64,000 nt of DNA from Gemmatimonadales bacterium. GTDB lineage: Bacteria > Gemmatimonadota > Gemmatimonadetes > Gemmatimonadales > GWC2-71-9. Where the stretch lies: assembly GCA_035518815.1 (NCBI GenBank), contig DATIXG010000072.1, forward strand, positions 119,348 to 183,347, given 5' to 3'. The position numbers were made by a program, and so were the translations under genes. The first letter of the stretch is position 1. Each line of letters opens with the position of its first letter. The notes under the pieces are model-generated. The model ran no database searches. It had not been told where the DNA came from and was given only the letters and a program-made list of their open reading frames with translations. This document shows, one piece after another, positions 23,910 to 61,174 of the stretch.

Positions 23910-24629
23910 GTGTCAAGCTATAGTTCACCTGATGCCACGGCAAGCACGGAGCGCCACCCGGTGAGCGTGCCGGCGCCCGAAACCCGGGTCGAACGGCGTC
24001 GCATGGTCGCGTCGCAGCTCGCGCGCCGCGGGATTCACGACCGGCGTGTCCTCGCCGCCATGGGATGGGTGCCGCGCGAGTGGTTCCTGCCGCCGCCGGT
24101 CGCCCACGAGGCCTACGACGATGCGCCGCTGCCGATCGGCAGCGGGCAAACCATCTCCCAGCCGTGCGTCGTTGCCGTGATGACGACGGCCATCGCGCCC
24201 CGTCGACGGGATCGCGTCCTCGAGATCGGCACCGGGTCGGGATACCAGACCGCGATTCTCGCGCACCTCGCCGGGCGCGTGTTCACGATCGAGCGGCTCC
24301 CTGACCTGCTCGTCGAAGCGGAAGAGCGGTTGCGCCGCCTTCATATCACGAACGTCGAGACGCGTCTCGGCGACGGCGCGGGTGGCTGGCCGGAGGCGGC
24401 GCCGTTTCAAGGAATCATCGTGACGGCGGCGGCTCCCCGCGTCCCGGCGCCGCTGCTCGAGCAGCTGGCGGTCGGCGGGCGGCTCGCGATTCCGGTCGGC
24501 GACCGCTCGTCGCAGGAGCTGTTGATCTACGAGCGCGCGCGGGGCGGGATCGAAGAACGGAGCGCGGGTGAAGTCCGTTTCGTGCCGCTGATCTCCCAGC
24601 TCGCATTCGCCGAGGAGGAGCGGGTGTGA
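23910..24629 (+). CDS. pcm: Protein-L-isoaspartate O-methyltransferase
   Basis: 239 aa. Contains GQTISQPCVVAVM and VLEIGTGSGYQTAILA. Exact start uncertain. Confidence 0.85.
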   Translation: MSSYSSPDATASTERHPVSVPAPETRVERRRMVASQLARRGIHDRRVLAAMGWVPREWFLPPPVAHEAYDDAPLPIGSGQTISQPCVVAVMTTAIAPRRRDRVLEIGTGSGYQTAILAHLAGRVFTIERLPDLLVEAEERLRRLHITNVETRLGDGAGGWPEAAPFQGIIVTAAAPRVPAPLLEQLAVGGRLAIPVGDRSSQELLIYERARGGIEERSAGEVRFVPLISQLAFAEEERV

Positions 24630-25516
24630 AACGCCGCGCCGGTGATCTGCTCGGCGCCCACGTCTCGACGCAGGGTGGCGTGGCGGAGGCCCCGGCGCGC
24701 GGTGCGGCGATCGGCGCGACCGCCATCCAGGTCTTCACCAAGACCCCGAACCAGTGGCGCGAACCCGTGCTCACGAGTGCGCACGTGGCCGCGTTCCGCC
24801 AGGCGCTCGCCGCGAGCGGGGTGCGCGCCGTCGTGGCCCACGACAGCTACCTCATCAACCTCGCGTCTCCCGACGACGCGCTGCGCGCACGCAGCGCCCT
24901 CTGCTTCAGGGGAGAGCTGACCCGGTGCCGCGCGCTCGGCATCCCCTGGGTCGTCTCACACCCCGGGAATTACATCGATGACCGCGCGGCCGGGCTCGAG
25001 CGAAACGCCCGTGAGTACGCGGCGTGCCTCGCCGCGGTGCCGGGCGACGTGGGGGTGCTCATCGAGGGCACGGCGGGAGCGGGGACCGCGCTCGGCGCGT
25101 CGTTCGAGGAACTGGCGGCGCTGCGCGACGCGCTGCCCGCGGAGGCCCGGGCGCGGGTGGCGTTCTGCCTCGACACGGCGCACGTGCACGCCGCGGGGTA
25201 TGACGTGGCCGGCGACATCGGTGGGGTATGGGAGCAATTCGACCGTACCATCGGGCTCCCCCTGCTTAACTGCTTGCATCTCAACGACTCCAAGGCGGCG
25301 ATGGGCTCGCACCTCGATCGGCACGAGTGGATCGGCGAGGGACGCATTGGACCAGTCGCCTTCCGCTATATTATGCGCGACCAACGCTTCGCATCCGTGA
25401 TCAAGATTATCGAGACCCCCAAGGCAGACGACCCCTTGTACCACGATCGGCGCATGTTGCGGCGGCTGCGCGCCTACGGACGGGCCCGCACTCTCTCCCG
25501 GTCGAATCGGGCTTGA
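24626..25516 (+). CDS. nfo: Endonuclease IV (deoxyribonuclease IV)
   Basis: 296 aa. GTGA overlap with pcm. Contains LGAHVSTQGG, VVAHDSYLINLASP, CLDTAHVHAAGYD and LHLNDSK. Confidence 0.85.
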   Translation: MKRRAGDLLGAHVSTQGGVAEAPARGAAIGATAIQVFTKTPNQWREPVLTSAHVAAFRQALAASGVRAVVAHDSYLINLASPDDALRARSALCFRGELTRCRALGIPWVVSHPGNYIDDRAAGLERNAREYAACLAAVPGDVGVLIEGTAGAGTALGASFEELAALRDALPAEARARVAFCLDTAHVHAAGYDVAGDIGGVWEQFDRTIGLPLLNCLHLNDSKAAMGSHLDRHEWIGEGRIGPVAFRYIMRDQRFASVIKIIETPKADDPLYHDRRMLRRLRAYGRARTLSRSNRA

Positions 25517-25863
25517 CCAGCCCCGGCACACGGTCGGGAGGGTTCCGAGCGCCGGTCGCCGCCCTGCTGTTCGTGCTCCAGGCCGTCGGGGGTGGGGCGG
25601 TCGCGTTGGCGCACGCCAGCGAGCCGCAGACGACCCCGGTGAGCGTGGAGACGCACCACGACGCCTCCTGCGTCGTGATCCACGACCCGATCCGCTGCGC
25701 TCTCTGCTGGTACGCCGGATCGGTGCTCACCGCGCCGGCGGCACCGGCGGGGCCGTGCGCGGCGACGGTACAGCAGCGCGTCGGCCTCCCTGCGGTCGTC
25801 GTCATCGGCAGGCCTACCTTCCACGAGGCGCTGCCCAGGGCTCCTCCCTTCACGCTCTCCTAG
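25513..25863 (+). CDS. Small exported Cys/His-motif protein (paralog of 55481..55825)
   Basis: In-frame part of ORF 25327..25863. The TTG at 25513 overlaps the nfo stop (TTGA) and gives a signal-like RSGGFRAPVAALLFVLQAVGGGAVALAHA. Motif ETHHDASCVVIHDPIRCALCWY and C-terminal PRAPPFTLS are shared with the second copy. Confidence 0.55.
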   Translation: MTSPGTRSGGFRAPVAALLFVLQAVGGGAVALAHASEPQTTPVSVETHHDASCVVIHDPIRCALCWYAGSVLTAPAAPAGPCAATVQQRVGLPAVVVIGRPTFHEALPRAPPFTLS

Positions 25864-25929
25864 CGCATCGAACACGCCCGGCGTCACGGCGGGCGTTCAA
25901 ATCGTTCATCGGTACCAAGGAGAGCTCGC

Positions 25930-27195
25930 ATGGCTCACTTGCAACGTGTCGCCGCGTTTGCGGCGGCGGCGCTGCTCACGGCCGGCGGTGCGGCGGCGCA
26001 ACAACCGACGCAGCGCCAGGTGGATTCACTCGCAGCAGAGGTGCGAGCGCTCGAAGCGCGGCTCGACAGCCTGCGCGCAGTGGTAGGGACGGCCGCGACC
26101 CCGGCCGGGGCTCCCTCGCCCGTTACGCCGGCAGCGGATACGGGGCTCGCGGCGCTCCGGGCAGCTGCCGTGGCTGCGGCCGGCGCGGACACCACGACCC
26201 CCGCCGCCGACACGAGTGCGACGACGCGATTCTCGGGGCATGAGCGCAGCCAGTCCCAGCTCAATCCCGAGATCGGCGCGACCGGCGACGTCCGGGCGTA
26301 CGCGCAGTCGCCCGGCCAGGGAAACAACTTCGACCCGCGGGAATTCGAGATCGGGTTCCAGTCGGCCCTCGATCCGTATTCGCACACCAAGATTTTCGTG
26401 AGCCTGGAAAACGATCACGTGGAGGTCGAGGAAGGCTATGCCTACTGGATCGGTCTTCCAGGACACCTGCGGTTCGACATCGGGGCCTTTCGCCAGCAGT
26501 TTGGCGAGCTGAACCGCTGGCATCTGCACGCCCTTCCCGAAACGGAGTACCCGCTCGCCCTCCGCGCCTACTTCGGCGACGACGGCCTGTCCGGTACGGG
26601 GATCTCGCTGTACCGCGCGTTCGGTGGCCTGGGGACCCACGAGCTGACCGGACAGGTCACGCTCAGCCGCAGCGACGACCTCCTGTTCGCGGGCGGCACC
26701 CGGCCCAGCTATCTGCTGCATCTCCTCAATTTTTGGCAGCTCTCACCGGCGACCTACATGCAGGTCGGCCTGAGCGGGCTGTACGGCACCAACCCCGATT
26801 CGAGCCTGAAGACCGGTGTGGCAGGCCTCGAGTTCCGGCTGACCTGGCGGCCGCCGGAGCAGACCCTGTATCGCGATTGGACGTTGCGCGGCGAGCTGCT
26901 GGCGCTGCGGAAGGACTATGGCGGCGCCGCCAACACGCGATGGGGAGGCTATCTCAGCACGACGTACAAGCTGGACCAGCGGTGGATCGTCGGCGCGCGC
27001 TGGGACTACGTCGAAGCCCCCGCGAGCGGCCTCGTGACGCAACAGCTCGTGCCGTCCCTCACAATGTGGCAGAGCGAATGGGTGTTCCTCCGCGCGCAGT
27101 ATACGTGGAGCAAGCCCGAGAGCCTCGACGCCACGAGCCAACTGGCAGTCCAGATCGTATGGGCCATCGGCCCCCACAAACACGAGACCTACTGA
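25930..27195 (+). CDS. Outer-membrane porin-like beta-barrel with N-terminal coiled coil
   Basis: 421 aa. AAGGAG RBS. Signal ...LLTAGGAAAQQ. Heptad-like QVDSLAAEVRALEARLDSLRA, then alternating-hydrophobic strands through to the C-terminus. Confidence 0.6.
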   Translation: MAHLQRVAAFAAAALLTAGGAAAQQPTQRQVDSLAAEVRALEARLDSLRAVVGTAATPAGAPSPVTPAADTGLAALRAAAVAAAGADTTTPAADTSATTRFSGHERSQSQLNPEIGATGDVRAYAQSPGQGNNFDPREFEIGFQSALDPYSHTKIFVSLENDHVEVEEGYAYWIGLPGHLRFDIGAFRQQFGELNRWHLHALPETEYPLALRAYFGDDGLSGTGISLYRAFGGLGTHELTGQVTLSRSDDLLFAGGTRPSYLLHLLNFWQLSPATYMQVGLSGLYGTNPDSSLKTGVAGLEFRLTWRPPEQTLYRDWTLRGELLALRKDYGGAANTRWGGYLSTTYKLDQRWIVGARWDYVEAPASGLVTQQLVPSLTMWQSEWVFLRAQYTWSKPESLDATSQLAVQIVWAIGPHKHETY

Positions 27196-27196
27196 C

Positions 27197-28243
27197 ATGT
27201 CGCCCTACATTCGACTGCTCTTGTCGCTCCACGTACCGGGCGCGCACCTGACGGCCGATCCCGTAAAGGTCGTCACTTCGCTCACCACGTACGCCGCAAT
27301 CGCCCGAGAGATCGTCGGGGATCGCGGCGAAGTGAGCGCGATCGCCTCTCCGTACGAGAATCCCCACTACGTGCAGCCCAAACCCAGCTTCGCACCGCTG
27401 CTCGCGGGAGCCGACCTCTTCGTCACAACCGGACTCGACCTCGAGCTCTGGGTCCCCGCTCTCCTGGACAAGGCGAGCAACCCCAAGATCACCGAGGGCG
27501 GTGTCGGCTACGTGGCGGCCAGCGCCGGAGTCCCGCTGCTCGACGTCCCCACGAGCTATTCCCGCACGCAGGGCGACATTCACGTGTTCGGCAACCCGCA
27601 CATCTGGACGGCGCCGCTCAACGCCATAATCATCGCGCGGAACATCCTGACGGGCTTGAAGCGCGTGGACCCGGCCAACGCGGAGTATTTCGCGGGCCGG
27701 GAGCAGGTGTTCGAGGATCGCGTGTACCGCGCCTTGTACGGCGACGAGCTGGTGAAGCTGCTCGGCGGCGCGACACTCGCCACCCTCGATCGCCAGGGCA
27801 AGCTTTTCGAATTCCTGAGCGGCCATCAGTACGGCGGAGCGCCGCTCACGGCGCGGCTGGGGGGATGGCTGAAGCAGGGCCTGCCGTTCCGCGGCAAGCC
27901 CGTTGTATGCTATCACAAGGAGTGGGACTACTTCTCCCGCGAGTTCGACGTGCCGTGCGTGGACTACATCGAGCCCAAGCCCGGCATTCCCCCCACGCCA
28001 AGCCATGTGCGCGAGGTGATCGACGAGATCAAAGAGCAGCGGATCGCAGTCCTTCTGTCGACCAGCTACTACGACCGCGAGCAGGTGCGCGAGGTCGCGG
28101 CGCGCACCGGAGCCACCGCCGTCATCGTGGCGGGGAACGCTGGGGGCGAGCCTGGCACGGAATCGTACGTAGGTCTGGTCAGCCTCTGGGTGGGGGCGCT
28201 GGCGCGCGGGTTCGCCGCGACGCCGCCCAGCCCTCAGCCGTAA
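27197..28243 (+). CDS. Metal ABC transporter substrate-binding protein (ZnuA/TroA family)
   Basis: 348 aa. Contains VVTSLTTYAAIAREIVG, NPHYVQPKPS, GNPHIWTAP and YHKEWDYF, the pattern of cluster A-I metal-binding proteins. Confidence 0.8.
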   Translation: MSPYIRLLLSLHVPGAHLTADPVKVVTSLTTYAAIAREIVGDRGEVSAIASPYENPHYVQPKPSFAPLLAGADLFVTTGLDLELWVPALLDKASNPKITEGGVGYVAASAGVPLLDVPTSYSRTQGDIHVFGNPHIWTAPLNAIIIARNILTGLKRVDPANAEYFAGREQVFEDRVYRALYGDELVKLLGGATLATLDRQGKLFEFLSGHQYGGAPLTARLGGWLKQGLPFRGKPVVCYHKEWDYFSREFDVPCVDYIEPKPGIPPTPSHVREVIDEIKEQRIAVLLSTSYYDREQVREVAARTGATAVIVAGNAGGEPGTESYVGLVSLWVGALARGFAATPPSPQP

Positions 28244-28258
28244 CGCGCGGGCCAACCG

Positions 28259-29086
28259 GTGCTCGCGTTCATGGCGGCGCCCTTCGTGGCGTGCATGATT
28301 CTCGTCGCGATCCATTCGTACCTCGGACTGCACATTATCGCCCGGGGGGTCATCTTCGTGGACCTGTCCCTCGCCCAGATGGCGGCGCTGGGTGGCGTCG
28401 TCGCGCTCTTGTACGGCGCCGCTCCCGACTCGCGCGAAGCGTTCATCTTCTCGCTGGCGTTCACGTGCCTGGGCGCGGCGGTGTTCGCCCTGACCCGGAC
28501 GCGGACCAAGAGCCGCGTGCCGCATGAGGCCATCATCGGAATTGTGTTTGTGACGGCGTCCGCGGCGGCGATTCTCGTGGCCGACCGGGCGCCGCGCGGG
28601 GCCGAGGCGATCCACGATGTGCTCGAGGGGGCTATCATCTGGATCACGTGGCCCACTATCGTCACGAAGGGGATCGCCTATAGCTCCCTCGGGCTGTTGC
28701 ACTTTCTGCTGCGACGCAGGTTTCTGCGGATCTCGTTCGACCCTGAAGGGGCCGAGCGCGACGGCTGGCGCATCCGGTGGTGGGACTTCCTGTTCTACGT
28801 CTCCTTCGGCCTCGCGGTGACGCTGTCCGTTCCCGTAGCCGGCGTCTTGCTTGTCTTCACCATGTTGGTCGTGCCAGCGGTGATCGCGTTCCTGTTCTCG
28901 AGCGACATTCGGTCGATGGTCATCATTTCGTGGGGCGTGGGCATGGTCGCGTCGCTGCTCGGCCTCTGGCTGTCCTATGCCGGCAACTTCCCCACCGGGC
29001 CGCTCATCGTCTGCATGTATGCGCTGCTCCTTCTGCTCGCGGGCGCCCTGCGGTGGCTCGGCGTGGCGGGAGAACGGGCGACGTGA
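28259..29086 (+). CDS. Metal ABC transporter permease (ZnuB/TroCD family)
   Basis: 275 aa. Polytopic membrane protein directly after the binding protein. ABC-3 type profile. Confidence 0.8.
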   Translation: MLAFMAAPFVACMILVAIHSYLGLHIIARGVIFVDLSLAQMAALGGVVALLYGAAPDSREAFIFSLAFTCLGAAVFALTRTRTKSRVPHEAIIGIVFVTASAAAILVADRAPRGAEAIHDVLEGAIIWITWPTIVTKGIAYSSLGLLHFLLRRRFLRISFDPEGAERDGWRIRWWDFLFYVSFGLAVTLSVPVAGVLLVFTMLVVPAVIAFLFSSDIRSMVIISWGVGMVASLLGLWLSYAGNFPTGPLIVCMYALLLLLAGALRWLGVAGERAT

Positions 29087-29724
29087 CGGGCGGGCATGCG
29101 ATCGGCCGGTCAGGTGGGCGGCTCGTCGCCATGCTCCTCACAGCCGCCCCGGCTCACCGTCTGACTGCCCAGATCTCCTGGCACGTCGCCGCCGGCGCCC
29201 GCTACACGACACCCCTCGTGCACGATTCCATCGTCAGTCCGTTCGACGTCAAGCTCGCGCTCGCGCCTGAGCTGGCCCTCACCGTCGGCGCGCAACCCGG
29301 ACACGGATGGGCGCCCCAGGTCCTGCTGGACGCGTCCACCAGCAACCTCGTGCGGCACGACCCTGACGGTACAACTATCACGCTCGAGCGCGTGAGCACC
29401 GTGTCGTTCGCGGTCGGCGTGAGCCACACCCTCCCCGGGGGCCTGCGTGGCAGCGTCGCCGTTGGCGGCCTCAAGTACCTCCCCAGCGAAGAGAGCGGCA
29501 TCTTCCGGCAAGGCAGCGGCGCCATCTCGCCCCTCGGCGCTCTGAGCGTCGCATACGGACTGCCGCTCGGCGAGCCCGGACGACCTCGGCGGTGGTGGCT
29601 GGAAGTGCGCTATGACATCCACGCGTTCACCACGCCCGCGCTGGACGATGAGGGCTTCACGTCCTCGCAGACCGTGCACCGCGTGGCGCTCGCGCTTGGC
29701 CGCGAGTTCGGACACACGCCGTGA
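29083..29724 (+). CDS. Hypothetical protein, possible small outer-membrane beta-barrel
   Basis: In-frame part of ORF 28777..29724. Start is GTG 29083 (GTGA overlap) or ATG 29131. Repeated amphipathic strands (VSFAVGVSHTL, GSVAVGGLKYL, RWWLEVRYDIHAF). Confidence 0.45.
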   Translation: MTGGHAIGRSGGRLVAMLLTAAPAHRLTAQISWHVAAGARYTTPLVHDSIVSPFDVKLALAPELALTVGAQPGHGWAPQVLLDASTSNLVRHDPDGTTITLERVSTVSFAVGVSHTLPGGLRGSVAVGGLKYLPSEESGIFRQGSGAISPLGALSVAYGLPLGEPGRPRRWWLEVRYDIHAFTTPALDDEGFTSSQTVHRVALALGREFGHTP

Positions 29725-30404
29725 CCCCCCTGGCCCGTGCGGCGCATCTGCTCCCGTTTCTCGCGCTCGTGGCCGCGTGCGAGCCGACGGTGCCGGAGCG
29801 CGACTGCAGCACCTGCGTGTACGATTTCGCCGATACGGTCCCCCCGGCGAACGCACTCGTGTTCCACTGGCCCGCCTCTCGCGAGCCGGTGCGCTTCTAC
29901 GGCGATCCGCGCGGGGCCATGCCTACCCTGGTCACCCTGGGGGTCACCGCCTGGGAAGGGCAGTTTCTCTACGGTGAATTTCGGGGCACGATCACGGTCG
30001 ATTCGAGCCAGGCGGACGTGATCATGTCCTGGGCGGGAGGTGTGCCGCCCGACGTCCCTCCCGACCCCGGACCGCCGGTGGACGCGTGCTTCGGTCTCAC
30101 GACGAACCCCGCAGGCGTCTTTGTCGACTCCTCGGCCTCGGACGTCCTCGTCGACACCTCGGTGAAGGTCCTGCACATCACGCTCGGCGCCAGAGGGAGC
30201 TTCCCCGCCGCCGTGGTCGCTGCGTGTCTGCGGCGGGTCGCCATTCACGAGCTCGGGCACGCCCTGGGACTGCTGAAACACAGCGCGTCGTCATTCGACA
30301 TCATGAACGCGACGCCCACGGTCACAGCGCCCAGCACCATCGACCGGAATACGGTGGAAGTGTTGTACCACACGCCGGCGACGCTCGTCCCGCCGCCGCG
30401 CTAG
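29721..30404 (+). CDS. Matrixin-like zinc metalloprotease lipoprotein
   Basis: 227 aa. GTGA overlap. Lipobox FLALVAAC. Zincin motif AIHELGHALGLLKH (HExxHxxGxxH). Confidence 0.7.
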   Translation: MTPLARAAHLLPFLALVAACEPTVPERDCSTCVYDFADTVPPANALVFHWPASREPVRFYGDPRGAMPTLVTLGVTAWEGQFLYGEFRGTITVDSSQADVIMSWAGGVPPDVPPDPGPPVDACFGLTTNPAGVFVDSSASDVLVDTSVKVLHITLGARGSFPAAVVAACLRRVAIHELGHALGLLKHSASSFDIMNATPTVTAPSTIDRNTVEVLYHTPATLVPPPR

Positions 30405-30417
30405 GCACCTCCCCTGC

Positions 30418-30446
30418 TTGACACCGGCAGGTCCGGCCCCTAGCCT
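30418..30446 (+). promoter_or_regulatory. Candidate sigma-70-type promoter for maeB, implying a leaderless or near-leaderless mRNA
   Basis: TTGACA (30418-30423), a 17-nt spacer, TAGCCT (30441-30446), then 7 nt to the ATG at 30454. No Shine-Dalgarno sequence in between. Confidence 0.4.
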
Positions 30447-30453
30447 CGCCTCA

Positions 30454-32739
30454 ATGGCGATCCGTCGCGAAGAAGCCCTCGAGTACCACGCGAAGGGTCG
30501 CCCGGGCAAGATCCAGGTCTCCCCCACCAAGCCCTTCAAGAACCAGCACGACCTCTCGCTCGCCTACACCCCGGGCGTCGCGGAGCCGTGCCGCGAAATC
30601 GCGGAGCGCCCCGACGACGTGTACGCCTACACGGCGCGAGGGAACCTCGTCGCCGTCGTCACGAACGGGACGGCGGTCCTGGGCCTCGGTGATATCGGGC
30701 CGCGCGCGGCGAAGCCGGTCATGGAGGGCAAAGCGCTGTTGTTCAAGGCGTTCGCCGATCTGGACGTGTTCGACCTCGAGGTCGGGTCAAAGAATCCCGA
30801 CGACCTGATCCACTTCTGCCGGCTGCTCGAGCCGACCGTGGGTGGCATCAACCTCGAGGACATCCGATCGCCGGACTGCTTCTACGTGGAGGAGCAGCTC
30901 CGGGCCACGCTCTCCATTCCCGTGTTTCACGACGACCAGCATGGCACCGCGATCATTTCGGGCGCGGCCCTCCTCAACGCGCTCGAGATCGTGGGCAAGA
31001 CGATCGGCTCGGTGCGCGTCGTGTTCGCGGGGGCGGGCGCCGCCGCGCAGGCCACCGCGTTGCACTACGAGCGCCTCGGCGTCGAGCACGAGCGCATCGT
31101 GATGTGCGATCAACACGGCGTGCTCCACGCCGGTCGGACCGACCTCGACCCCTACAAGAAACGGTTCGTGAGCGGCACCAAGGCGCGGACCCTGGGCGAG
31201 GCCCTCGTCGGCGCGGACGTCTTCGTCGGGCTGTCCACCGGCGGCATCGTCACCGGCGAGATGCTCGCGGGGATGGCGCCGCGACCGGTCGTGTTCGCTC
31301 TCGCCAACCCGACGCCAGAAATCATGCCCGACGAGGCACGGCGGGCGCGCCCCGATGCCGTCGTCGCCACCGGTCGCTCCGATTTCGCGAACCAGGTGAA
31401 CAACGTGCTCGGCTTTCCGTTCATCTTCCGCGGCGCGCTCGACGTGCGGGCGAGGGCGATCAACGAGCAGATGGAGCTTGCGGCCACGCGCGCCCTCGCT
31501 GCGCTCGCCAAACAGGAGGTGCCCGACTCCGTGACCCGGGCGTACGGCCTCGAGCAGCTGCACTTCGGGCCCGACTACCTGATTCCCAAGCCGTTCGACC
31601 CACGCGTGCTCCTGTGGGTGGCGCCCGCCGTCGCGTGGGCCGCCGTGGCGTCGGGCGTCGCCGGGCGCACGATCGATGAAGAAGAGTACCGCGCCGAGCT
31701 CGAGGCCAGGCTGGGCCGCGCGCGGGAGGTGATGCGCGGGCTCTCGGCACGGGCGCAACGGGCCCCACAGCGGATTGTCTTTCCGGAAGGAACCGAGCCG
31801 CGCATCGTTCGCGCGGCCCGCGCGCTCACCGACGAGGGAACGGCCATCCCGATCCTCCTCGGCGACGCCGGCCGGGTCCGCGAGCAGGCCCACGCGGTGG
31901 GCGTGACCCTGGACGGCATCGAGCTGATTGACCCGCGGACCGCGCCCGACCGGGAGGCGCTCGCCCGCGAGCTGTGGGAGCGCCGTCGCCGCAAGGGCAT
32001 CACTCTCCGCGAGGCGCGGGCCCGCGCCGAGGATCCCATGCACTACGCGCTGCTCACCCTCGGCGCAGGTCGGGCGGATGCCGTCGTCGCCGGGGAGGAC
32101 ACCTACTATCCCGACGCGATCCGTCCGGCGCTCGAGATCATCGGGGCGGAGCCGGGGCGCCGCCACGTCAGCGGGATTTACATGCTGGTGTTCCCCCAGC
32201 ACACCCTGTTCTGCGCCGACTGCACGGTGAACATCGATCCGACGGCCGAGACGCTTGCGGAAATCGCGTCCGCCACCGCGCAGTTCGTACGACGACTCGG
32301 GATCGAGCCTCGCGTGGCGATGCTGTCGTTTTCCAATTTCGGATCGGTCCGACACCCGGCCGTGGAGAAGGTGCGGCAGGCGGTGGCGCTCCTGCACGAG
32401 CAGGAACCCGGACTCGAGGTCGACGGCGAAATGCAGGCCGACACCGCAGTGGTGGAACGCCTGCTGACGCAGACGTACCCCTTCGCCCGCCTCAAGGCTC
32501 CGGCCAACGTCCTGATCTTCCCGAACCTCGACGCCGCGAACATCTCCTACAAACTGCTCGACCGGCTCGGCGGCGCGCAGGCGATCGGCCCGATTCTGGT
32601 AGGGATGGCGAAACCGGTCCATATCCTGCAGCGTGGCGCGGAGGTGAGCGACATCGTCAACATGGCCGTCATCGCCGCCGTCGACGCCCAGGAGCACCGC
32701 CGCGGCACCCCGTCCCCGCCCGCCGGCTCCCCCCCGTGA
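30454..32739 (+). CDS. maeB: NADP-dependent malic enzyme (malic enzyme + phosphotransacetylase-like domain)
   Basis: ORF 30418..32739. [37 protein letters not shown] at ATG 30454 gives 761 aa. C-terminal PTA-like domain present. Confidence 0.9.
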
Positions 32740-55311: not shown

Positions 55312-55480
55312 GACTTCCCCCTGAGTCAGTGGGCCCAGGGCGCGGGGCATATATCCCCCCACGAGGACGCGGAGCGCAAGAGCAACCCGTCAGGCGTGAG
55401 CTACGACACACTTGCCGGACCATACTCTGCATCTCGAAACATTTGTTGCAGTTCCGAGCCTCCCCTCTTATCCTGTGTCC

Positions 55481-55825
55481 ATGGTGTCACGGTCGCGGCG
55501 CGCCCGCTTGCTTCTCGCCGGTCTCCTGGCCCTGCAGGTCGGGATGCCGGGCGCCGTCGCGTGGGCGGATGCGCGGCTCGACGCGACCAGCGCCTTGGCC
55601 GTCGCGCACTTCGAATCGCACACGACCGCATCGTGTGTGCACATCCATCCGGCGGACTGCGCCTTTCACCGCTTTCTGTCCGCTCCCCTCGCGCCAGGCA
55701 GGCCCCTCGCGGTCAGCCTTCGCGTAGGTGCACCTCGCGCCGTTTGGTATGTCTCCCGTGATGTCGGCTTCACCGCTCCGCAGGAACGCCTCCCCGACTC
55801 TCGCGCTCCACCGCAGCTCTCGTAA
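55481..55825 (+). CDS. Small exported Cys/His-motif protein (paralog of 25513..25863)
   Basis: In-frame part of ORF 55412..55825. ATG 55481 gives MVSRSRRARLLLAGLLALQVGMPGAVAWA. Motif ESHTTASCVHIHPADCAFHRF and C-terminal DSRAPPQLS align with the first copy. Confidence 0.6.
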   Translation: MVSRSRRARLLLAGLLALQVGMPGAVAWADARLDATSALAVAHFESHTTASCVHIHPADCAFHRFLSAPLAPGRPLAVSLRVGAPRAVWYVSRDVGFTAPQERLPDSRAPPQLS

Positions 55826-55925
55826 CCCGGTCTGACCCGCGCCACGGCGCGGCCCTTGGCACGGAACGAACCCCGGGACCCCGGGGCGCGCCGTGCAATG
55901 ACCGCTTGTACGGGAGGCTAGTTCC

Positions 55926-58316
55926 ATGCGCAGCATTCCATTTCCATACCTGGCGCGAGCCCTGGTATTTCTCGCGCTCGTTGCCGCACCTCGCACCGCT
56001 CACTCGACCCCCGCGCCCAAGGTGTCAGGCCGCGTCGCGGCCGTCGGCGGAGCACCCGCCGCCATCCCGGCCACCGGCGTCGGGGACATCAGCGGTGCCG
56101 TGACCGACAGCGTCACCGGGAAGCCGTTGCCGGGCGGCGAGGTGCGAATCGTCCAACGTGGGAACGTGGTCGCGACGACGACCACCGACGCGTTCGGCGA
56201 GTTCATCGTACACAACCTCGCGGCGGGCTCCTACACCGTCGAAGTCCGCTACCTGGGCTATCGCGTTGCGTCGCGCGAGGTCAACCTGACCGGAGCAGCC
56301 GCGCAACAAGCGCTCGCCTTCCAAATGGCGCCCATCCCCGTCAACCTCGAGGCGGTGCAGGTCCGGGCGGAGGTGCCGCTCGCCGTGGACACAAGGACCG
56401 GAAATCAGGTGTTCAAGCAGAACGACTACCACGGCGCACCCAGCAGCACCGCGTCGCAGATCCTGCAGCAGTCCATCGCGGGGGCGGCGCGGGCGCCGAC
56501 GGGCGAGGTCCACATTCGGGGCCAGCACGCCGAGTACACCTACTACGTCGACGGCATCCCGGTCCAATCGGGAATCTCGGGCAGCCTGAACGAGTTGTTC
56601 GACCCCGAGGTCGTGAATCAGATCGTCTTTCAGACGGGCGGGTGGGACCCTGAGTTCGGGAACAAAAACGCGGCGATCGTCAACGTCACCACGCGCATCC
56701 CCGCCGGCGGATTCCATGCCGACCTCGGGGCGTATGGCGGGTCATTCACCACGAACGGCCAGTCGCTCAACCTGAGTACCAACGCCGGTAAGTGGGGGTT
56801 CTTCGCGTCGGGCACCCGGAAAGTCACGGATATGCGTCAGGAGCCCGTCGCCTTCGACACCGTCACCAATGAGCCCTTCAACTACCACAACGACGGTGAG
56901 GACCTGTTCGGGTTCGGCAAGATCGAGTATGTCCCGTCCGCACACGACGTCGTGAACCTCGACGTGAACTGGTCGCGTACGCATTTCGCCGTGCCCTTCG
57001 ACTCGTCGCAGGGGATCACCGACGCTCATCAACAGGATGTAAACGGTTTCGTCAATCTCGGGTGGCGGCACCGCTTCGCCGTCGAGCAGGGAGAGGGAGG
57101 GCGCGCGTCGGAGCTGTTTGCCGGCGGCTTCTATCGGAACGGCAGCTTGACCTACACACCCGGCGTCGCGGACGAGCCGTCATTCGTCTTCTATCCCGAC
57201 ACGACGACAGCTTACAACCTCAGCGAGGACAGGAATTTCAACTCGGTGGGCGCAAAGCTTGATTACCTGTTCCGCCCGCACCACGGTCTCGAGTTCAAGC
57301 TCGGCGCTCAGGGGTCAATCACGCGTGGGCACGAGGATTTCGAGACGGTCGATTCGGCTGGCAACCCGGGCCCCGCCTCCAACTCGGACCTGAATGGCAG
57401 CGACGTCGGCGCCTACGCGCAGGTAGCCATCTCCCCCTCGGACCGGTGGGAGCTCCGGACCGGGCTCCGCTTCGACAATCACAACGCGCCGTTCGCGGGC
57501 AACCAGAACCAGCTGAGCCCGCGAGTGAAGCTCAGTTTCCTGGCGGATCCGGCCAACACGTTCTGGGTATACTACGGGCGCCTCTTTATTCCGACGAATG
57601 TGGAGGACTTACGAGCGATCACGAGCGTCGCCCAGGGCGACACCGTGGCCGAGCCGACGCTGCCCGAGCGGGATGACTTTTTCGAAGTAGGCTACGTCCA
57701 CCGCTTCTCGTTCGGCGTCGTGACGAAGCTCTCCGGCTACTACAAGGTCAGCAAGCCAGGGATTGACGACAACACGGTTCCTGGGTCGTCGATCGTGACC
57801 TCGGTGAACATCGAGGAGGTTCACACCACGGGGATCGAGGCGGTTGTGGAGGTGCGGACGCGAGGCCCCTTCTCGGGCTACCTGAACTTCGCGTTGAACC
57901 ACGCCTACGGCTCCGGGGCGATCACAGGGGGATTCTTCCCAACGGCGCCGCCGGCCGGCGATTTCGACCTCGATCACGACCAGCGGATCTCGGTGGCGGG
58001 GAATGCGATCTACGCACACCACGGCTGGTATCTGTCGGCGACCGGGATCTATGGGACGGGCCTCACGAACGGCAACGAAGACGCCACCTTCGGCACCCGC
58101 CTGCTGGACTTCAATGCGGATGGGCACGTGGCCCCGAACTTCATTCTCAACGCCAGCGTGGGCTACACGTGGGTGGTCGGGAGCACCGCCATTCGGCCGC
58201 AGCTCTACGTGGACAACCTGCTCGACAACCACTACTTGCTAAAAGGGGCCTTCTTCAGTGGAGCGTCGGTTGGCCGGCCGCGTTCGGTCCAATTTCGCGT
58301 GAGCATGGGGGTCTAG
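55926..58316 (+). CDS. TonB-dependent receptor with N-terminal carboxypeptidase-regulatory-like domain
   Basis: 796 aa. GGGAGG RBS. Signal ..LVAAPRTAHS. ISGAVTDSVTGKPLPGGEVRIV...GSYTVEVRYLGY (CarboxypepD_reg-like), then plug and a 22-strand-type barrel. Confidence 0.85.
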   Translation: MRSIPFPYLARALVFLALVAAPRTAHSTPAPKVSGRVAAVGGAPAAIPATGVGDISGAVTDSVTGKPLPGGEVRIVQRGNVVATTTTDAFGEFIVHNLAAGSYTVEVRYLGYRVASREVNLTGAAAQQALAFQMAPIPVNLEAVQVRAEVPLAVDTRTGNQVFKQNDYHGAPSSTASQILQQSIAGAARAPTGEVHIRGQHAEYTYYVDGIPVQSGISGSLNELFDPEVVNQIVFQTGGWDPEFGNKNAAIVNVTTRIPAGGFHADLGAYGGSFTTNGQSLNLSTNAGKWGFFASGTRKVTDMRQEPVAFDTVTNEPFNYHNDGEDLFGFGKIEYVPSAHDVVNLDVNWSRTHFAVPFDSSQGITDAHQQDVNGFVNLGWRHRFAVEQGEGGRASELFAGGFYRNGSLTYTPGVADEPSFVFYPDTTTAYNLSEDRNFNSVGAKLDYLFRPHHGLEFKLGAQGSITRGHEDFETVDSAGNPGPASNSDLNGSDVGAYAQVAISPSDRWELRTGLRFDNHNAPFAGNQNQLSPRVKLSFLADPANTFWVYYGRLFIPTNVEDLRAITSVAQGDTVAEPTLPERDDFFEVGYVHRFSFGVVTKLSGYYKVSKPGIDDNTVPGSSIVTSVNIEEVHTTGIEAVVEVRTRGPFSGYLNFALNHAYGSGAITGGFFPTAPPAGDFDLDHDQRISVAGNAIYAHHGWYLSATGIYGTGLTNGNEDATFGTRLLDFNADGHVAPNFILNASVGYTWVVGSTAIRPQLYVDNLLDNHYLLKGAFFSGASVGRPRSVQFRVSMGV

Positions 58317-58358
58317 AGATGCTTCTCGACCTGTCGCGGCGTTCATCGCCCGCGTAAC

Positions 58359-60284
58359 GTGGGCGTACTGAGCGCCGCGGTACGGCTTGCGGCAGGCCTC
58401 GGCGTGGTCGCCGGAGTCGGCGCGGCGCAGAGCACGGGTGACAGCGCCGAGGCCCCGCCTGCCAGTCTCATCGAGCTACTCGAGGAGACGCCCGGCATTC
58501 GTGTGGAGACCACATCCCCGGGGCTCGGCTCGGTGGGGATTCGCATTCAAGGTCTCCCGGGCGAATACACCGAGGTACTCGTCGACGGACTCCCGCTGCT
58601 CGGCGTCCAATCCGGAGGGTTGGGGTTCGCGCAGGTGTCGGCGCTCGACATCGAGCGCGTGGAGGTGGTCAAGGGTCCGGCGACGGCCTTGTACGGACCG
58701 TCCTCGTTGGGCGGGATCGTGAATCTCATTTCCCGTCCGCCCGGCGGTGCACCGGAGGTCGTGCTCAATCAGACCTCCCAGGACGGCACCGATCTCATGG
58801 CCTGGTTGTCTCAGGGTCTCGGAGACCGCTGGGGTCTCACGGTCCTCGGCGGCGCGCACCGGCAGGGCGCGCAGGATGTCAACAACGACGCCTGGGCCGA
58901 CGTGCCGGGCTTCCAGCGCATCGAGCTACGACCTCGGCTCTTCTGGAAGACTCCGCGCGGCGCCTCGCTCGTCGCGACCCTGGGCGGGATGTCCGAAGAG
59001 CGCGCGGGTGGGACCCTGCCGGGAATGATCCTGGCCGACGGACAGTCCTTCGCCACGTCCGCGAACACCAACCGTGCGGATGTGGGACTGGTCGGCGTGT
59101 TTCCGGTAGCCGGTGCCGACACATTCACCGTGCGGGGATCGGCGGCCGGCGCGTGGGAGCGGGAAACATTCGGACCGACCACCCAGCGCTACGTGCAGCA
59201 CGGGGAGTACCACACGGCCTTCACTCAGGCCACGCTGACTGTCCCCGGCTCCAAAGTCACATGGGTCGTCGGGGCGGCGTACGAGCAGAATGCGTTTCAT
59301 TCCCCCGACCTGGCGGGGTTCGAATACACGTACAACACACCGTCCCTGCTGGCGCAGGCGACCGTGGCCCTCGGCTCGAGGTTCAGTGTGATGGCGAACG
59401 GCCGCTGTGACTGGCAGAGCGAATACGGCACCACGTGCAGCCCGCGCGGGACTGCGTTGTTCCGCGGGCCGGGACGGTGGGAGGTCTGGCTATCTGGCGC
59501 GACCGGATTCTTCGCACCGACCCCGTTTCTCGACGAGACCGAGGGGATCCCCCTCGCTCGACTCGTTCCGTTCACGACGCGGGTCATCACGATTTGCAGC
59601 GCCGGCCTCTGCTCGAGCGACTCGGGGGGCGTGCGCACCACGGCGCCCTTCTCGATTGCGGCACAACGGGCCCGCTACGGCTCGCTCGATTTCGCGCGAC
59701 GCGTGAAAGGGCTCGAGCTTGGGGCAACGTTCTTCACGGCCAGTGTCGACCACCCCCTCATCCTCTCGGAGCTGAACCCGTTCGACGAGCGCCCACAACT
59801 GGTCAACGCCTCCGGCCCGCTTCGCACCGCAGGCGCGGAGCTCGCCGTAGTCTATGCTCCGCGGACCATACGGATTGCGGCAGACTACACCTACCTCCAC
59901 TCGACGCTGATTTCCGCAGCGACGGCCAGCCGCGTTGAGGCACCACTCACCCCCCGGCACAGCGGGGCGCTCGATGTCGGGTGGAGGGAAGCCTCCCGCA
60001 GGACACGCCTGGGGCTTCACATCGCCTATACTGGTCGGCAAGCCGTCTTCGACGACCCCTACCGCACCGCGACCCCGTCTTACGCGACCGTCGCGTTCCG
60101 CGCCTCGCGCCGCATCGGCGTCATCGACTTGTACCTGAACGGCGAGAACCTCGGCAACGTGCGACAGACGCAGTACGACCCCCTGCTCATGCATGCGCCG
60201 AGCGCGGAGCTGCAGTGGACCACTGAGGTGTGGGCTCCGCTGGAGGGGCGCGTGCTCAACGCCGGCGTGCGGGTCGCGTTCTAA
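58359..60284 (+). CDS. TonB-dependent receptor (plug + barrel)
   Basis: 641 aa. GTG start. Plug motifs IRIQGLPGEYTEVLVDGLPL, VEVVKGPATALYGPSSLGGIVNLISR. C-terminal ...NAGVRVAF ends in an aromatic residue. Confidence 0.85.
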   Translation: MGVLSAAVRLAAGLGVVAGVGAAQSTGDSAEAPPASLIELLEETPGIRVETTSPGLGSVGIRIQGLPGEYTEVLVDGLPLLGVQSGGLGFAQVSALDIERVEVVKGPATALYGPSSLGGIVNLISRPPGGAPEVVLNQTSQDGTDLMAWLSQGLGDRWGLTVLGGAHRQGAQDVNNDAWADVPGFQRIELRPRLFWKTPRGASLVATLGGMSEERAGGTLPGMILADGQSFATSANTNRADVGLVGVFPVAGADTFTVRGSAAGAWERETFGPTTQRYVQHGEYHTAFTQATLTVPGSKVTWVVGAAYEQNAFHSPDLAGFEYTYNTPSLLAQATVALGSRFSVMANGRCDWQSEYGTTCSPRGTALFRGPGRWEVWLSGATGFFAPTPFLDETEGIPLARLVPFTTRVITICSAGLCSSDSGGVRTTAPFSIAAQRARYGSLDFARRVKGLELGATFFTASVDHPLILSELNPFDERPQLVNASGPLRTAGAELAVVYAPRTIRIAADYTYLHSTLISAATASRVEAPLTPRHSGALDVGWREASRRTRLGLHIAYTGRQAVFDDPYRTATPSYATVAFRASRRIGVIDLYLNGENLGNVRQTQYDPLLMHAPSAELQWTTEVWAPLEGRVLNAGVRVAF

Positions 60285-60516: not shown

Positions 60517-61038
60517 CTATGAGCACTTAGGCGAGGGAAACACCGCCATTTTCACGATGCCCACCAGCTGCACGCCCACAAGCAGCACCAAGAGGAACCA
60601 CGTGAGCCGTCGCGAACGGGCCCGCGAATCCAGCGAACGGCGGTAGACGCTCCAGCCGACAAAGACGACCAGCGTCTCCACTAGCAGGTCCAGGGCCGGA
60701 TAGTCGTACAGCGACAGGCCGATCATCGGGCCCCCGGGCCATGTGGGCTTGTAGCCGGTGAGATAGTCGGCGAGGGCGTGCGAGACGACGGTGGCCGCAA
60801 TGACAGCCGTAGCCCCGCGACTGCGGGTCCACCCGAACGCTGCCAGCCCGAACAGAGTGGCGAGCACCAGAACGGCGGGGATGGAGTGCGACACCATCGC
60901 GGACGCGTCGGGGGCGGTTACGCACCCGACGACCTGCACCCAATCGCACGCCTGCGTCGCGACGACCAGGAGCCAGAGCGGTGCGTCGCGCCGCAGACCG
61001 CGGGCGCCGAGGGCGATCCCCAGATGACCGGCGTACAC
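60517..61038 (-). CDS. Hypothetical polytopic membrane protein
   Basis: 173 aa. GTG start. Five or so hydrophobic helices. Loosely resembles membrane-bound metal-dependent hydrolase (YdjM-like) proteins, but I cannot confirm this. Confidence 0.55.
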   Translation of the reverse strand: MYAGHLGIALGARGLRRDAPLWLLVVATQACDWVQVVGCVTAPDASAMVSHSIPAVLVLATLFGLAAFGWTRSRGATAVIAATVVSHALADYLTGYKPTWPGGPMIGLSLYDYPALDLLVETLVVFVGWSVYRRSLDSRARSRRLTWFLLVLLVGVQLVGIVKMAVFPSPKCS

Positions 61039-61174
61039 CTATGGGCTGGGCGGACCGCGCCGGAGCCGGCGATCGATCACGACCGTCAGCACGGCGGGCA
61101 CGAGGAGCGCGACGACGAGGAGGTACGGGTACATTGCGAGCGCTGCATTATACCCAGTTGCGCCGAGGTCGCTC

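Follow-up and report, generated by a model that had tools for sequence, protein, structure and literature searches.

What does a short peptide with an export signal and a cluster of Cys and His residues do when it is encoded directly ahead of outer membrane channel genes? The question is raised by two small open reading frames (ORFs), here called uA and uB, in a 64,000-nucleotide (nt) stretch of a Gemmatimonadales bacterium genome (assembly GCA_035518815.1, contig DATIXG010000072.1, positions 119,348 to 183,347 of the forward strand), referred to below as the window. A preliminary description, made from the DNA letters, had taken the products to be paralogous exported mini-proteins. From the homology, architecture, fixed spacing, synteny and conserved RNA pairing observed in their family, we put at about 0.6 the probability that uA and uB are instead cis-acting, metal-sensing leader peptides of the CruR/CutF type (DUF2946-like), and not working periplasmic proteins. 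The features on which this reading is built are as follows.

25513..25863, forward strand: uA, candidate leader ORF of 116 amino acids (aa), with a TTG start overlapping the nfo stop, an export-type N-terminus, E-x-HH-x3-C-x3-H-x4-CALC, a variable spacer of 43 residues, RAPP and 4 further codons.
55481..55825, forward strand: uB, candidate leader ORF of 114 aa, with an export-type N-terminus (..LPGAVAWA/DARLD), H-x-E-x-H-x4-C-x3-H-x3-CAFH, a variable spacer of 44 residues, RAPP and 3 further codons.
25648..25707, forward strand: putative metal-ligand segment of uA (E46, H48/H49, C53, H57, C62 and C65, the last two in CALC), in conserved alignment columns.
55607..55669, forward strand: putative metal-ligand segment of uB (H43, E45, H47, C52, H56, C60 and H63), with CxxH replacing CxxC, in invariant or near-invariant columns.
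25837..25848, forward strand: RAPP codons of uA (AGG GCT CCT CCC), predicted arrest site; invariant in the uA alignment, with synonymous codons varying.
25843-25845 and 25846-25848, forward strand: predicted P-site and A-site Pro codons of uA, by analogy with the CruR toeprint (PMC12992588).
55802..55813, forward strand: RAPP codons of uB (CGC GCT CCA CCG), predicted arrest site, 3 codons ahead of the stop as in CruR (PMC9426467).

Both ORFs lie where they had been placed, and the paralogy first proposed for them is borne out. The two products are 42% identical over 95 aa (BLASTP E=2e-8), and their Smith-Waterman score of 110 (z=14.4) is reached by 0/2000 shuffles of uB, which score 30.5 +/- 5.5, so the amino acid composition of a GC-rich genome fails to explain the match. 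That the frames might be mere shadows had been considered at the outset, and this alternative fails. There are at least 140 homologues of uB (105-140 aa) and 23 of uA, all annotated as hypothetical, without Pfam domains and mostly from Gemmatimonadales metagenome-assembled genomes (MAGs), and at E<=1e-3 a joint profile of the uA and uB subfamilies retrieves 795 cluster representatives. Among deposited proteins, HUL03018.1, a hypothetical protein of a Gemmatimonadales bacterium, is nearly identical to uA. Over 106 distinct DNA copies, the entropy at the three codon positions is 0.11/0.06/1.62 bits for RAPP, 0.77/0.56/1.10 for the Cys/His core and 1.39/1.40/1.57 for the variable stretch, and RAPP is encoded by five Arg, four Ala and four Pro codons across the family, which together indicate that the frames are under protein-level selection.

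Alignment of the family resolves three conserved blocks, an N-terminal block, the Cys/His core and RAPP near the stop, with a variable stretch before RAPP. The N-terminal block reads ..LLQxxLPGAAAWADA.. in uB, where it is unusually conserved, and ..LQALGGGAVALAHA.. in uA. Its basic, hydrophobic, export-type character was recognised correctly from the start: as read from the sequence, both N-termini are Arg-rich, then hydrophobic, and then carry an AxA site (ALA/HA in uA, AWA/DA in uB), and the AlphaFold (AF2) model of uB has a confident helix only at residues 3-37, with predicted local distance difference test values of 44-65 elsewhere. The core reads HxESHxxxxCxxIHPADCAFHRF in uB and EAHHxASCxVxHDAxRCALCxYAG in uA; CxxC is present in 26/26 members of the uA type and CxxH in 114/114 of the uB clade. 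RAPP occurs in 142/145 close members, one of the remaining three having RGPP, and exactly 3 residues follow it in 127 of the 145 (family mode 3). In the uB clade, CxxH lies 44 residues from RAPP in 114/114 members, and among close members with CxxC that motif lies 43-44 residues from RAPP. Among the best-scoring representatives listed (n=146), 116 have RAPP, 13 RGPP, 121 CxxC and 7 CxxH, at a spacing of 42-45 (mode 44). The spacer between the Cys/His motif and RAPP therefore varies in sequence and is fixed in length, and it is predicted to be disordered.

The cores and tails quoted in the preliminary description (tails ..PRAPPFTLS in uA and ..SRAPPQLS in uB) are exact, yet it missed RAPP as a ribosome-arrest motif. 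RAPP is characterised as such in ApdA and ApdP and is related to RAGP of SecM (PMC10951233, PMC7897499). The closest characterised relative of uA and uB is CruR, the copper-responsive upstream regulator of bfrG (Bordetella pertussis Bp2923), a DUF2946 protein encoded at the head of an operon for a TonB-dependent receptor (Roy et al. 2022, PMC9426467). In that study, mutation of RAPP abolishes downstream expression, mutation of CXXC abolishes copper control, five extra spacer residues impair regulation, and the signal peptide is dispensable. CruR arrests in vitro with two Pro codons in the P and A sites, according to a later survey (EMBO J 2025, PMC12992588), which also describes small secreted RAPP/RGPP ORFs as over-represented upstream of TonB-dependent receptor genes and widespread in Gram-negative bacteria. 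CutF of Rhodobacter, put in DUF2946 by its authors, has, after a signal peptide, CxxxC, some 45 residues and a stall site rich in Pro (PMC9973294), and its stalling melts a stem-loop that hides the ribosome-binding site (RBS) of cutO (PMC9973294; bioRxiv 10.1101/2025.02.05.636593).

Placed beside these systems, uA and uB carry the C-terminal RAPP of CruR with 4 and 3 residues after it, respectively, and their Cys-motif-to-RAPP distances of 43 and 44 residues fall within the expected value of about 45 (+/- 1-2). At the position of the DUF2946 CXXC, uA has CALC and uB has CAFH. An export signal is indicated for both by sequence reading (Arg-rich n-region, hydrophobic core, AxA), together with the AF2 helix. 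uB appears to stand at the head of its operon, with a possible promoter of its own, a 100-nt spacer and receptor genes downstream; uA is likewise followed by a 66-nt spacer and then by porin and ZnuA genes, but its start overlaps the nfo stop, and hence it is not first. Under the rule set for CutF-like proteins (PMC9973294), the lengths of 116 and 114 aa, the position of PP at 5-6 (uA) or 4-5 (uB) residues from the C-terminus and spacers of 66 and 100 nt all conform, and an mRNA stem that would shield the RBS, close to a ribosome stalled at RAPP, is predicted computationally at both loci, more weakly for uB.

The earlier impression of a resemblance to DUF2946 was right at the superfamily level. 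Among distant members retrieved by the window-family profile, 66/102 match PF11162 (E<=1), in alignments that stay co-linear as far as profile position 117 of 117. The member P0272 reaches 25.4 bits on PF11162, above the gathering score of 23.7 bits, and aligns to the uB profile with an hhalign probability of 98.5% (E 2.6e-15) and to the uA profile with 95.9% (E 6e-9). By this transitive link, uA and uB are filed here as probable divergent relatives on the fringe of DUF2946, and most likely belong to a known regulator class, the CruR/CutF-type arrest leaders and RAPP ORFs upstream of TonB-dependent receptor genes.

Could uA and uB nevertheless be exported, processed and stable metal-binding mini-proteins, acting as metallochaperones or accessory subunits that feed or gate the neighboring porin and receptors? 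The conserved export-type N-terminus with its AxA site, the conserved Cys/His cluster and the strict adjacency to outer membrane channel genes would all suit such a role. The structure prediction, however, is disordered or of low confidence outside the N-terminal helix, and some 40% of the mature chain varies freely in sequence at a constant length, an odd property in a folded binder. Nor does this model give any role to an invariant RAPP at a fixed distance from the stop or to final codons constrained at the RNA level (see below). CruR and CutF, moreover, are undetectable or rapidly degraded and act in cis (PMC9426467; PMC9973294). We consider a stable periplasmic protein improbable: the spacer pattern, the disorder and the RNA-constrained tail fit a regulatory nascent peptide acting in cis and fit a working periplasmic protein poorly. 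Of the periplasmic metal ligand set first proposed, the spaced Cys and His residues and their resemblance to metal ligands stand, and the stable exported role is probably wrong.

Export monitoring is a further candidate function. Signal-bearing peptides that arrest at RAPP are chiefly known for monitoring protein localization (PMC7897499, PMC10987492), and it could be speculated that uA and uB monitor export (Sec or signal recognition particle capacity, like SecM, ApdA and ApdP), or serve as plain coupling leaders, and so tune outer membrane protein synthesis without sensing metal. The unusual conservation of the N-terminal region would agree with monitoring, and the physical coupling of uA to nfo with a coupling leader. 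The genes directly downstream of uA and uB are, however, not secA, secDF, yidC or other Sec/YidC components, such as accompany SecM, ApdA, ApdP, MifM and VemP; the invariant C-x3-H-x3-C-x2-C/H at a fixed distance from RAPP and a ZnuA-type importer in the same island point to metal; and the signal peptide is dispensable in CruR (PMC9426467). This explanation seems to us very improbable.

If uA and uB are leader peptides that act in cis, their output should be sought in the mRNA. At both junctions, a predicted helix joins the end of the leader to the start region of the next gene.

25854..25861, forward strand: 5' strand of the predicted uA helix, GCUCUCCU, made of the last uA codons and the first stop base; indicated by the minimum free energy (MFE) fold, duplex prediction and codon bias.
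25918..25925, forward strand: 3' strand of the predicted uA helix, AGGAGAGC, in the Shine-Dalgarno (SD) region of the porin-like gene (ATG at 25930).
55813..55824, forward strand: 5' strand of the predicted uB helix, GCAGCUCUCGUA, made of the last uB codons and the stop; indicated by the MFE fold and weaker than in relatives.
55909..55919, forward strand: 3' strand of the predicted uB helix, UACGGGAGGCU, which holds the SD sequence GGGAGG of the first receptor gene (ATG at 55926).

The MFE fold of the uA junction pairs GCUCUCCU with AGGAGAGC (z=-2.65), and that of the uB junction pairs GCAGCUCUCGUA with UACGGGAGGCU (z=-1.9). Among relatives, leaders end overwhelmingly in CTC-TCC-TGA or CTC-TCC-TAG; the terminal Leu codon is CTC in 53/56 cases, vs 56% in ORF bodies, and the terminal Ser codon is TCC in 58/67, vs 25%. 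This bias, unlike the freely varying codons of RAPP, indicates a constraint on the tail at the RNA level. Duplexes in typical relatives have 8-12 perfect pairs, for example GCUCUCCUGA/UCAGGAGAGC. At 59/68 junctions (intergenic spacers 50-117 nt), at least 5 nt of the region -17..-4 pair, in unconstrained MFE folds, with the stretch that begins at the P-site Pro codon and ends at the stop. For the CxxH clade, RNAalifold recovers the same closing helix, in which 15-16 of 16 sequences pair, and also a hairpin just past the stop; on a mixed-clade alignment, which was poor, it returned no structure. Alternative helices recur elsewhere in the family: CUCCCGUUCC/GGAACGGGAG in leaders ending TSRS, GAUCGAGAGCUG/CAGCUCUCAAUC in L045, a DUF2946-positive member that has no SD sequence and whose purine strand has swapped polarity, and CCGGUGAUCUGAA/UUCAGAUCAUCGG in L048, at -26 kcal/mol. 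Over 91 non-redundant junctions, the longest contiguous complementarity between tail and start region averages 7.9 nt, vs 6.1 nt for control 18-mers from the same ORFs (Wilcoxon p=3e-11).

The GC-rich hairpin directly past the uB stop (in the interval 55826..55925; alignment columns 29-55) is conserved among relatives, and at least one change in it is compensatory (columns 38/45, GC to CG). Lacking a U-tract, it is no intrinsic terminator and may serve as a pause element or as a mere scaffold for the closing helix. Rfam has no family in the uA or uB region.

These elements may be combined into a single mechanism. uA or uB would be translated ahead of an outer membrane uptake gene, and the ribosome would arrest on reaching RAPP, with Pro-tRNA in the P and A sites. 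At that point the spacer of 43-44 residues would fill the exit tunnel and the Cys/His cluster (C-x3-H-x3/4-C-x2-C in uA, C-x3-H-x3-C-x2-H in uB) would just have emerged, while the ribosome would cover the 3-4 codons after RAPP, that is, one strand of the helix that masks the RBS. When metal is low, the stall would persist, the RBS would be exposed, and the porin and ZnuAB genes or the receptor genes would be translated; when the cognate metal is plentiful, its binding to the nascent cluster would release the stall, the ribosome would terminate and leave, the helix would re-form and expression of the uptake gene would fall. The direction of the metal effect follows the example of CruR and the role of the target genes in import, and sensing would presumably take place in the cytoplasm or the Sec channel.

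On established ribosome dimensions, the leading edge of an arrested ribosome should lie about 15 nt beyond the first base of its P-site codon. With the third RAPP codon in the P site, a stalled ribosome would thus cover 55808-55822 in uB, nearly the whole 5' strand of the helix, and 25843-25857 in uA, half of it. On this rationale, RAPP would lie three codons before the stop because the codons after it are the masking strand and would lie inside the arrested ribosome.

The genes that would be controlled in this way agree with those first described: a porin-like gene and a ZnuA/ZnuB-like pair after uA, and two TonB-dependent receptor genes after uB.

25930..27195, forward strand: porin-like outer membrane beta-barrel gene (421 aa; signal peptide, coiled coil, about 16 strands), the first gene behind uA.
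27197..28243, forward strand: ZnuA-family substrate-binding protein (Pfam 1.4e-42; PDB relatives YfeA/PsaA/ZnuA), in conserved synteny.
28259..29086, forward strand: ABC-3 permease (Pfam 1.6e-36), in conserved synteny.
55926..58316 and 58359..60284, forward strand: two TonB-dependent receptor genes (Pfam and NCBIfam), behind uB, with homologues behind uB-type ORFs at most loci.

The 421-aa protein has no Pfam match and no sequence match in the PDB; its AF2 model (predicted template modeling score 0.54) has about 16 strands, with Omp32, OmpT and OprO as the best PDB folds found by Foldseek (template modeling scores 0.4-0.55). Its family counts more than 2700 homologues (E<=1e-5), all hypothetical, 66-81% identical among the matches listed and with many invariant His, Glu, Asp and Trp residues; the protein has an N-terminal coiled coil and ends in ..GPHKHETY. 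The first receptor (55926..58316) likewise gave no PDB match in a sequence search. Behind the permease lie genes for a protein of 211-216 aa without a Pfam match (29089..29724) and for an M10-like zinc-peptidase homologue (29721..30404).

Forty-two loci were found in species-representative genomes, all from Gemmatimonadales or Gemmatimonadota MAGs, and most share one order: nfo, uA, porin-like gene, ZnuA, ABC-3 permease, uB, receptor, 216-aa protein, M10-like peptidase and malic enzyme, with uB either right after the permease or divergent beside malic enzyme. The pair of paralogues is thus a conserved feature of one metal-uptake island. In the window, the unit of uB and receptor lies about 25 kb from the rest (24626..32739 vs 55481..60284) and has gained the second receptor gene (58359..60284). 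A receptor or porin-like gene lies downstream in essentially all 42 genome loci, and also in 60/71 evaluable metagenome loci that were selected by peptide pattern only (43 receptor-like, 17 porin-like, 11 other). Further afield, a distant DUF2946-positive member precedes a CarboxypepD_reg-type outer membrane protein, and another distant member precedes a 404-aa protein and ZnuA. No ATPase of the ATP-binding cassette (ABC) type is among the conserved island genes identified, despite the ZnuA-type binding protein and the ABC-3 permease. A precursor of the methanobactin type or another ribosomally synthesized and post-translationally modified peptide was also considered for uA and uB and dropped, as the conserved island contains no maturation genes.

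The two leaders differ in how they begin. The TTG start of uA at 25513 overlaps the stop of the upstream nfo (TTGA, 25513..25516), the gene of endonuclease IV, a zinc-dependent repair enzyme; uA is probably co-transcribed with nfo and perhaps translationally coupled to it. Such a junction is unusual, since leaders of this kind normally head their operon. Relatives of uA have an ATG at or just past the nfo stop, often with AAGGAG upstream. Upstream of uB, a possible promoter can be read at 55446..55483 on the forward strand (TTGCAG-N17-TATCCT-N6-ATG), and its CxxH-clade relatives have a much better conserved TGTCAAG-N17-TAATAT-N7-ATG, from which transcription would be expected to begin on the start codon or close to it; uB may accordingly be translated from a leaderless mRNA. 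A consensus promoter scan did not call the uB candidate, and such scans for promoters and terminators gave nothing useful. Inspection by eye, the only search made for them, recognized no Zur or Fur operator upstream of uA or uB.

The window holds one further ORF of possible interest, of 64 aa on the reverse strand (61039..61233), which encodes one hydrophobic helix and the C-terminus ..RRLRRGPPSP and whose stop abuts the start of a YdjM-like inner membrane protein gene (60517..61038, reverse strand; PF04307, 1.7e-6). With RGPP, the other motif known to arrest strongly, the ORF may be a second candidate for an arrest peptide, unrelated to uA and uB, or the motif could be due to chance; the exact sequence of the product has no match in the protein collection searched.

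As to which metal would be sensed, zinc is a plausible leading guess, from the ZnuA-type importer with its His-His-His-Asp ligands, and nothing in the conserved island is copper specific. By sequence reading, the His of NPHY, the His of GNPHIW and the Asp of YYD in the binding protein align with ligand positions of YfeA, and the His of CYHKEWDYF is, by motif comparison, what we take to be the third ligand His. The resulting set appears TroA/ZnuA-like and compatible with zinc or manganese. In the leaders themselves, the four-ligand C-x3-H-x3/4-C-x2-C/H would suit zinc as well as Cu(I). A more far-reaching possibility, which we hold to be rather unlikely, is that uA and uB are the first zinc-responsive (or non-copper) arrest switch: a Cys3His or Cys2His2 knuckle would bind metal at the tunnel exit and release a RAPP stall whose only job is to park the ribosome on an anti-SD strand in the last three codons of the leader, with the CxxC and CxxH paralogues providing two metal thresholds or specificities, one for the porin and ABC importer and the other for the energy-costly TonB-dependent receptors that belong to the same island.

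Several observations weigh against reading uA and uB as metal-sensing arrest leaders that unmask an RBS. Arrest, metal binding and regulation by these two peptides are all things that we infer. The formal test for PF11162 failed, as uA and uB have no Pfam or NCBIfam match even at E<=10, and the caution of the preliminary description in equating their motif with DUF2946 was justified. uB is without CXXC, the functional hallmark of CruR, and RAPP or RGPP by itself means little in a GC-rich window whose six-frame translation contains R[AG]PP 41 times. The nearest sequence relatives of the binding protein at 27197..28243 are manganese, iron or zinc proteins such as YfeA, PsaA and MntC, which rank ahead of ZnuA. 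For the helix, the tail, when paired with the intergenic region as a whole, gave best-duplex energies no better than those of control segments in this GC-rich RNA, only the position beside the start codon being enriched (59 vs 28-33 of 102), and this test was replaced by the contiguous-run test. In the main clade the helix is near-invariant (CUCUCC/GGAGAG), so that its conservation could reflect an SD sequence and a conserved Leu-Ser, not pairing; covariation is scant within that clade and comes mainly from a few divergent ones. The uB helix of the window is among the weaker, with 3 SD-region nt paired in a longer-context fold and a duplex z of -0.68. Lastly, given the overlap between the nfo stop and the uA start, opening of the helix could come from a coupled or terminating ribosome and would then need no arrest.

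Also on this side of the balance is a different output for the same sensor. The 3' ends of both ORFs are C-rich and G-poor, with C/G up to 2.2 over 55751-55855 and 25798-25900, and given these ends a CruR-type Rho mechanism is equally possible: a ribosome stalled at RAPP would shield a Rho-utilization site or the polymerase, and release by metal would let Rho end transcription ahead of the outer membrane gene. Such an output has been demonstrated for CruR, with RAPP at the same position and a receptor gene downstream (PMC9426467). The long intergenic regions (66 and 100 nt), in neither of which an intrinsic terminator was found, and the conserved GC hairpin past the stop would suit it as well. 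The C-richness, however, largely follows from Pro, Ala, Ser and Leu codons, and Rho explains neither the bias in the two final codons nor the pairing with the RBS, which recurs even in versions without an SD-like sequence. A purely Rho-based output, with the RBS helix secondary or irrelevant, is therefore rather unlikely in our view; Rho attenuation and RBS unmasking are compatible with each other.

Should uA and uB prove to be arrest leaders with RBS unmasking, the implications extend beyond this window. Metal-sensing arrest peptides (CruR and CutF) were described only in 2022-2023, only for copper and only in Proteobacteria, and the class would be extended to an unannotated family with hundreds of cluster representatives, mostly missed by Pfam. 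The CxxC/CxxH pair of paralogues offers natural material for dissecting ligand specificity, and a simple structural reason is offered for the puzzling rule that places RAPP three codons from the stop. If it is true that the sensed metal is zinc, post-transcriptional zinc control would be added in bacteria, for which, as for copper, no riboswitch is known according to the CruR authors (PMC9426467). What is distinctive of the uA/uB family is that it lies below Pfam detection, is specific to Gemmatimonadales in the genome loci sampled, includes one CxxH paralogue, occurs together with a ZnuA-type importer and a porin-like gene, and would use its last codons as the RBS-masking strand, so joining a CruR-like arrest motif to a CutF-like output.

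In comparison with known systems, CruR shares with uA and uB a small ORF with an export signal, a Cys metal motif about 45 residues before an invariant RAPP that lies 3 residues from the stop, a product predicted to be poorly structured, and a long structured intergenic region followed by a TonB-dependent receptor gene. It differs in that uA and uB fall below the Pfam model, uB has CxxH and not CXXC, and both have extra conserved upstream His, Cys and Glu residues (C-x3-H-x3-C); in that the window context consists of a ZnuA-type importer and a porin-like barrel and not of copper genes (PepSY, PCuAC, YcnI); and in that uA is not first in its unit. A helix between the post-RAPP codons and the RBS is evident in the window family, whereas CruR is reported to act via Rho, and Gemmatimonadota are not among the phyla named in the relevant main-text passage of the CruR study, its Table S1 aside (PMC9426467).

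CutF (Rhodobacter capsulatus cutFOG; Ozturk et al. 2023, PMC9973294) shares the proposed output, a stalled ribosome that melts a stem-loop hiding the downstream RBS, and its authors note Cys, His or mixed motif clusters and contexts beyond copper among CutF-like proteins (PMC9973294; bioRxiv 10.1101/2025.02.05.636593). It relies on CxxxC and a PPP-type stall dependent on elongation factor P, whereas the window family uses RAPP; in CutF, metal makes the stall last longer and a detoxifying oxidase is induced, whereas the targets in the window are uptake genes, for which the opposite sign would be expected; and the masking strand in the window family is formed by the last codons of the leader itself. 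SecM, ApdA and ApdP (PMC10951233, PMC7897499) have in common with uA and uB an N-terminal export signal and RAPP/RAGP arrest at the peptidyl-transferase center, with a stall that exposes a downstream RBS, but they monitor Sec/YidC activity, regulate the localization machinery and have neither a metal-ligand cluster nor a fixed motif-to-RAPP spacing. A tblastn search of plasmids with a DUF2946-positive member, seeking the helix in Proteobacteria, gave no match. The RAPP/RGPP ORFs before receptor genes surveyed in PMC12992588 are exactly this class, with a C-terminal RAPP/RGPP, a signal peptide and a downstream receptor; in the searched portion of that text, RNA structure, SD masking, Gemmatimonadota and ZnuA contexts are not mentioned.

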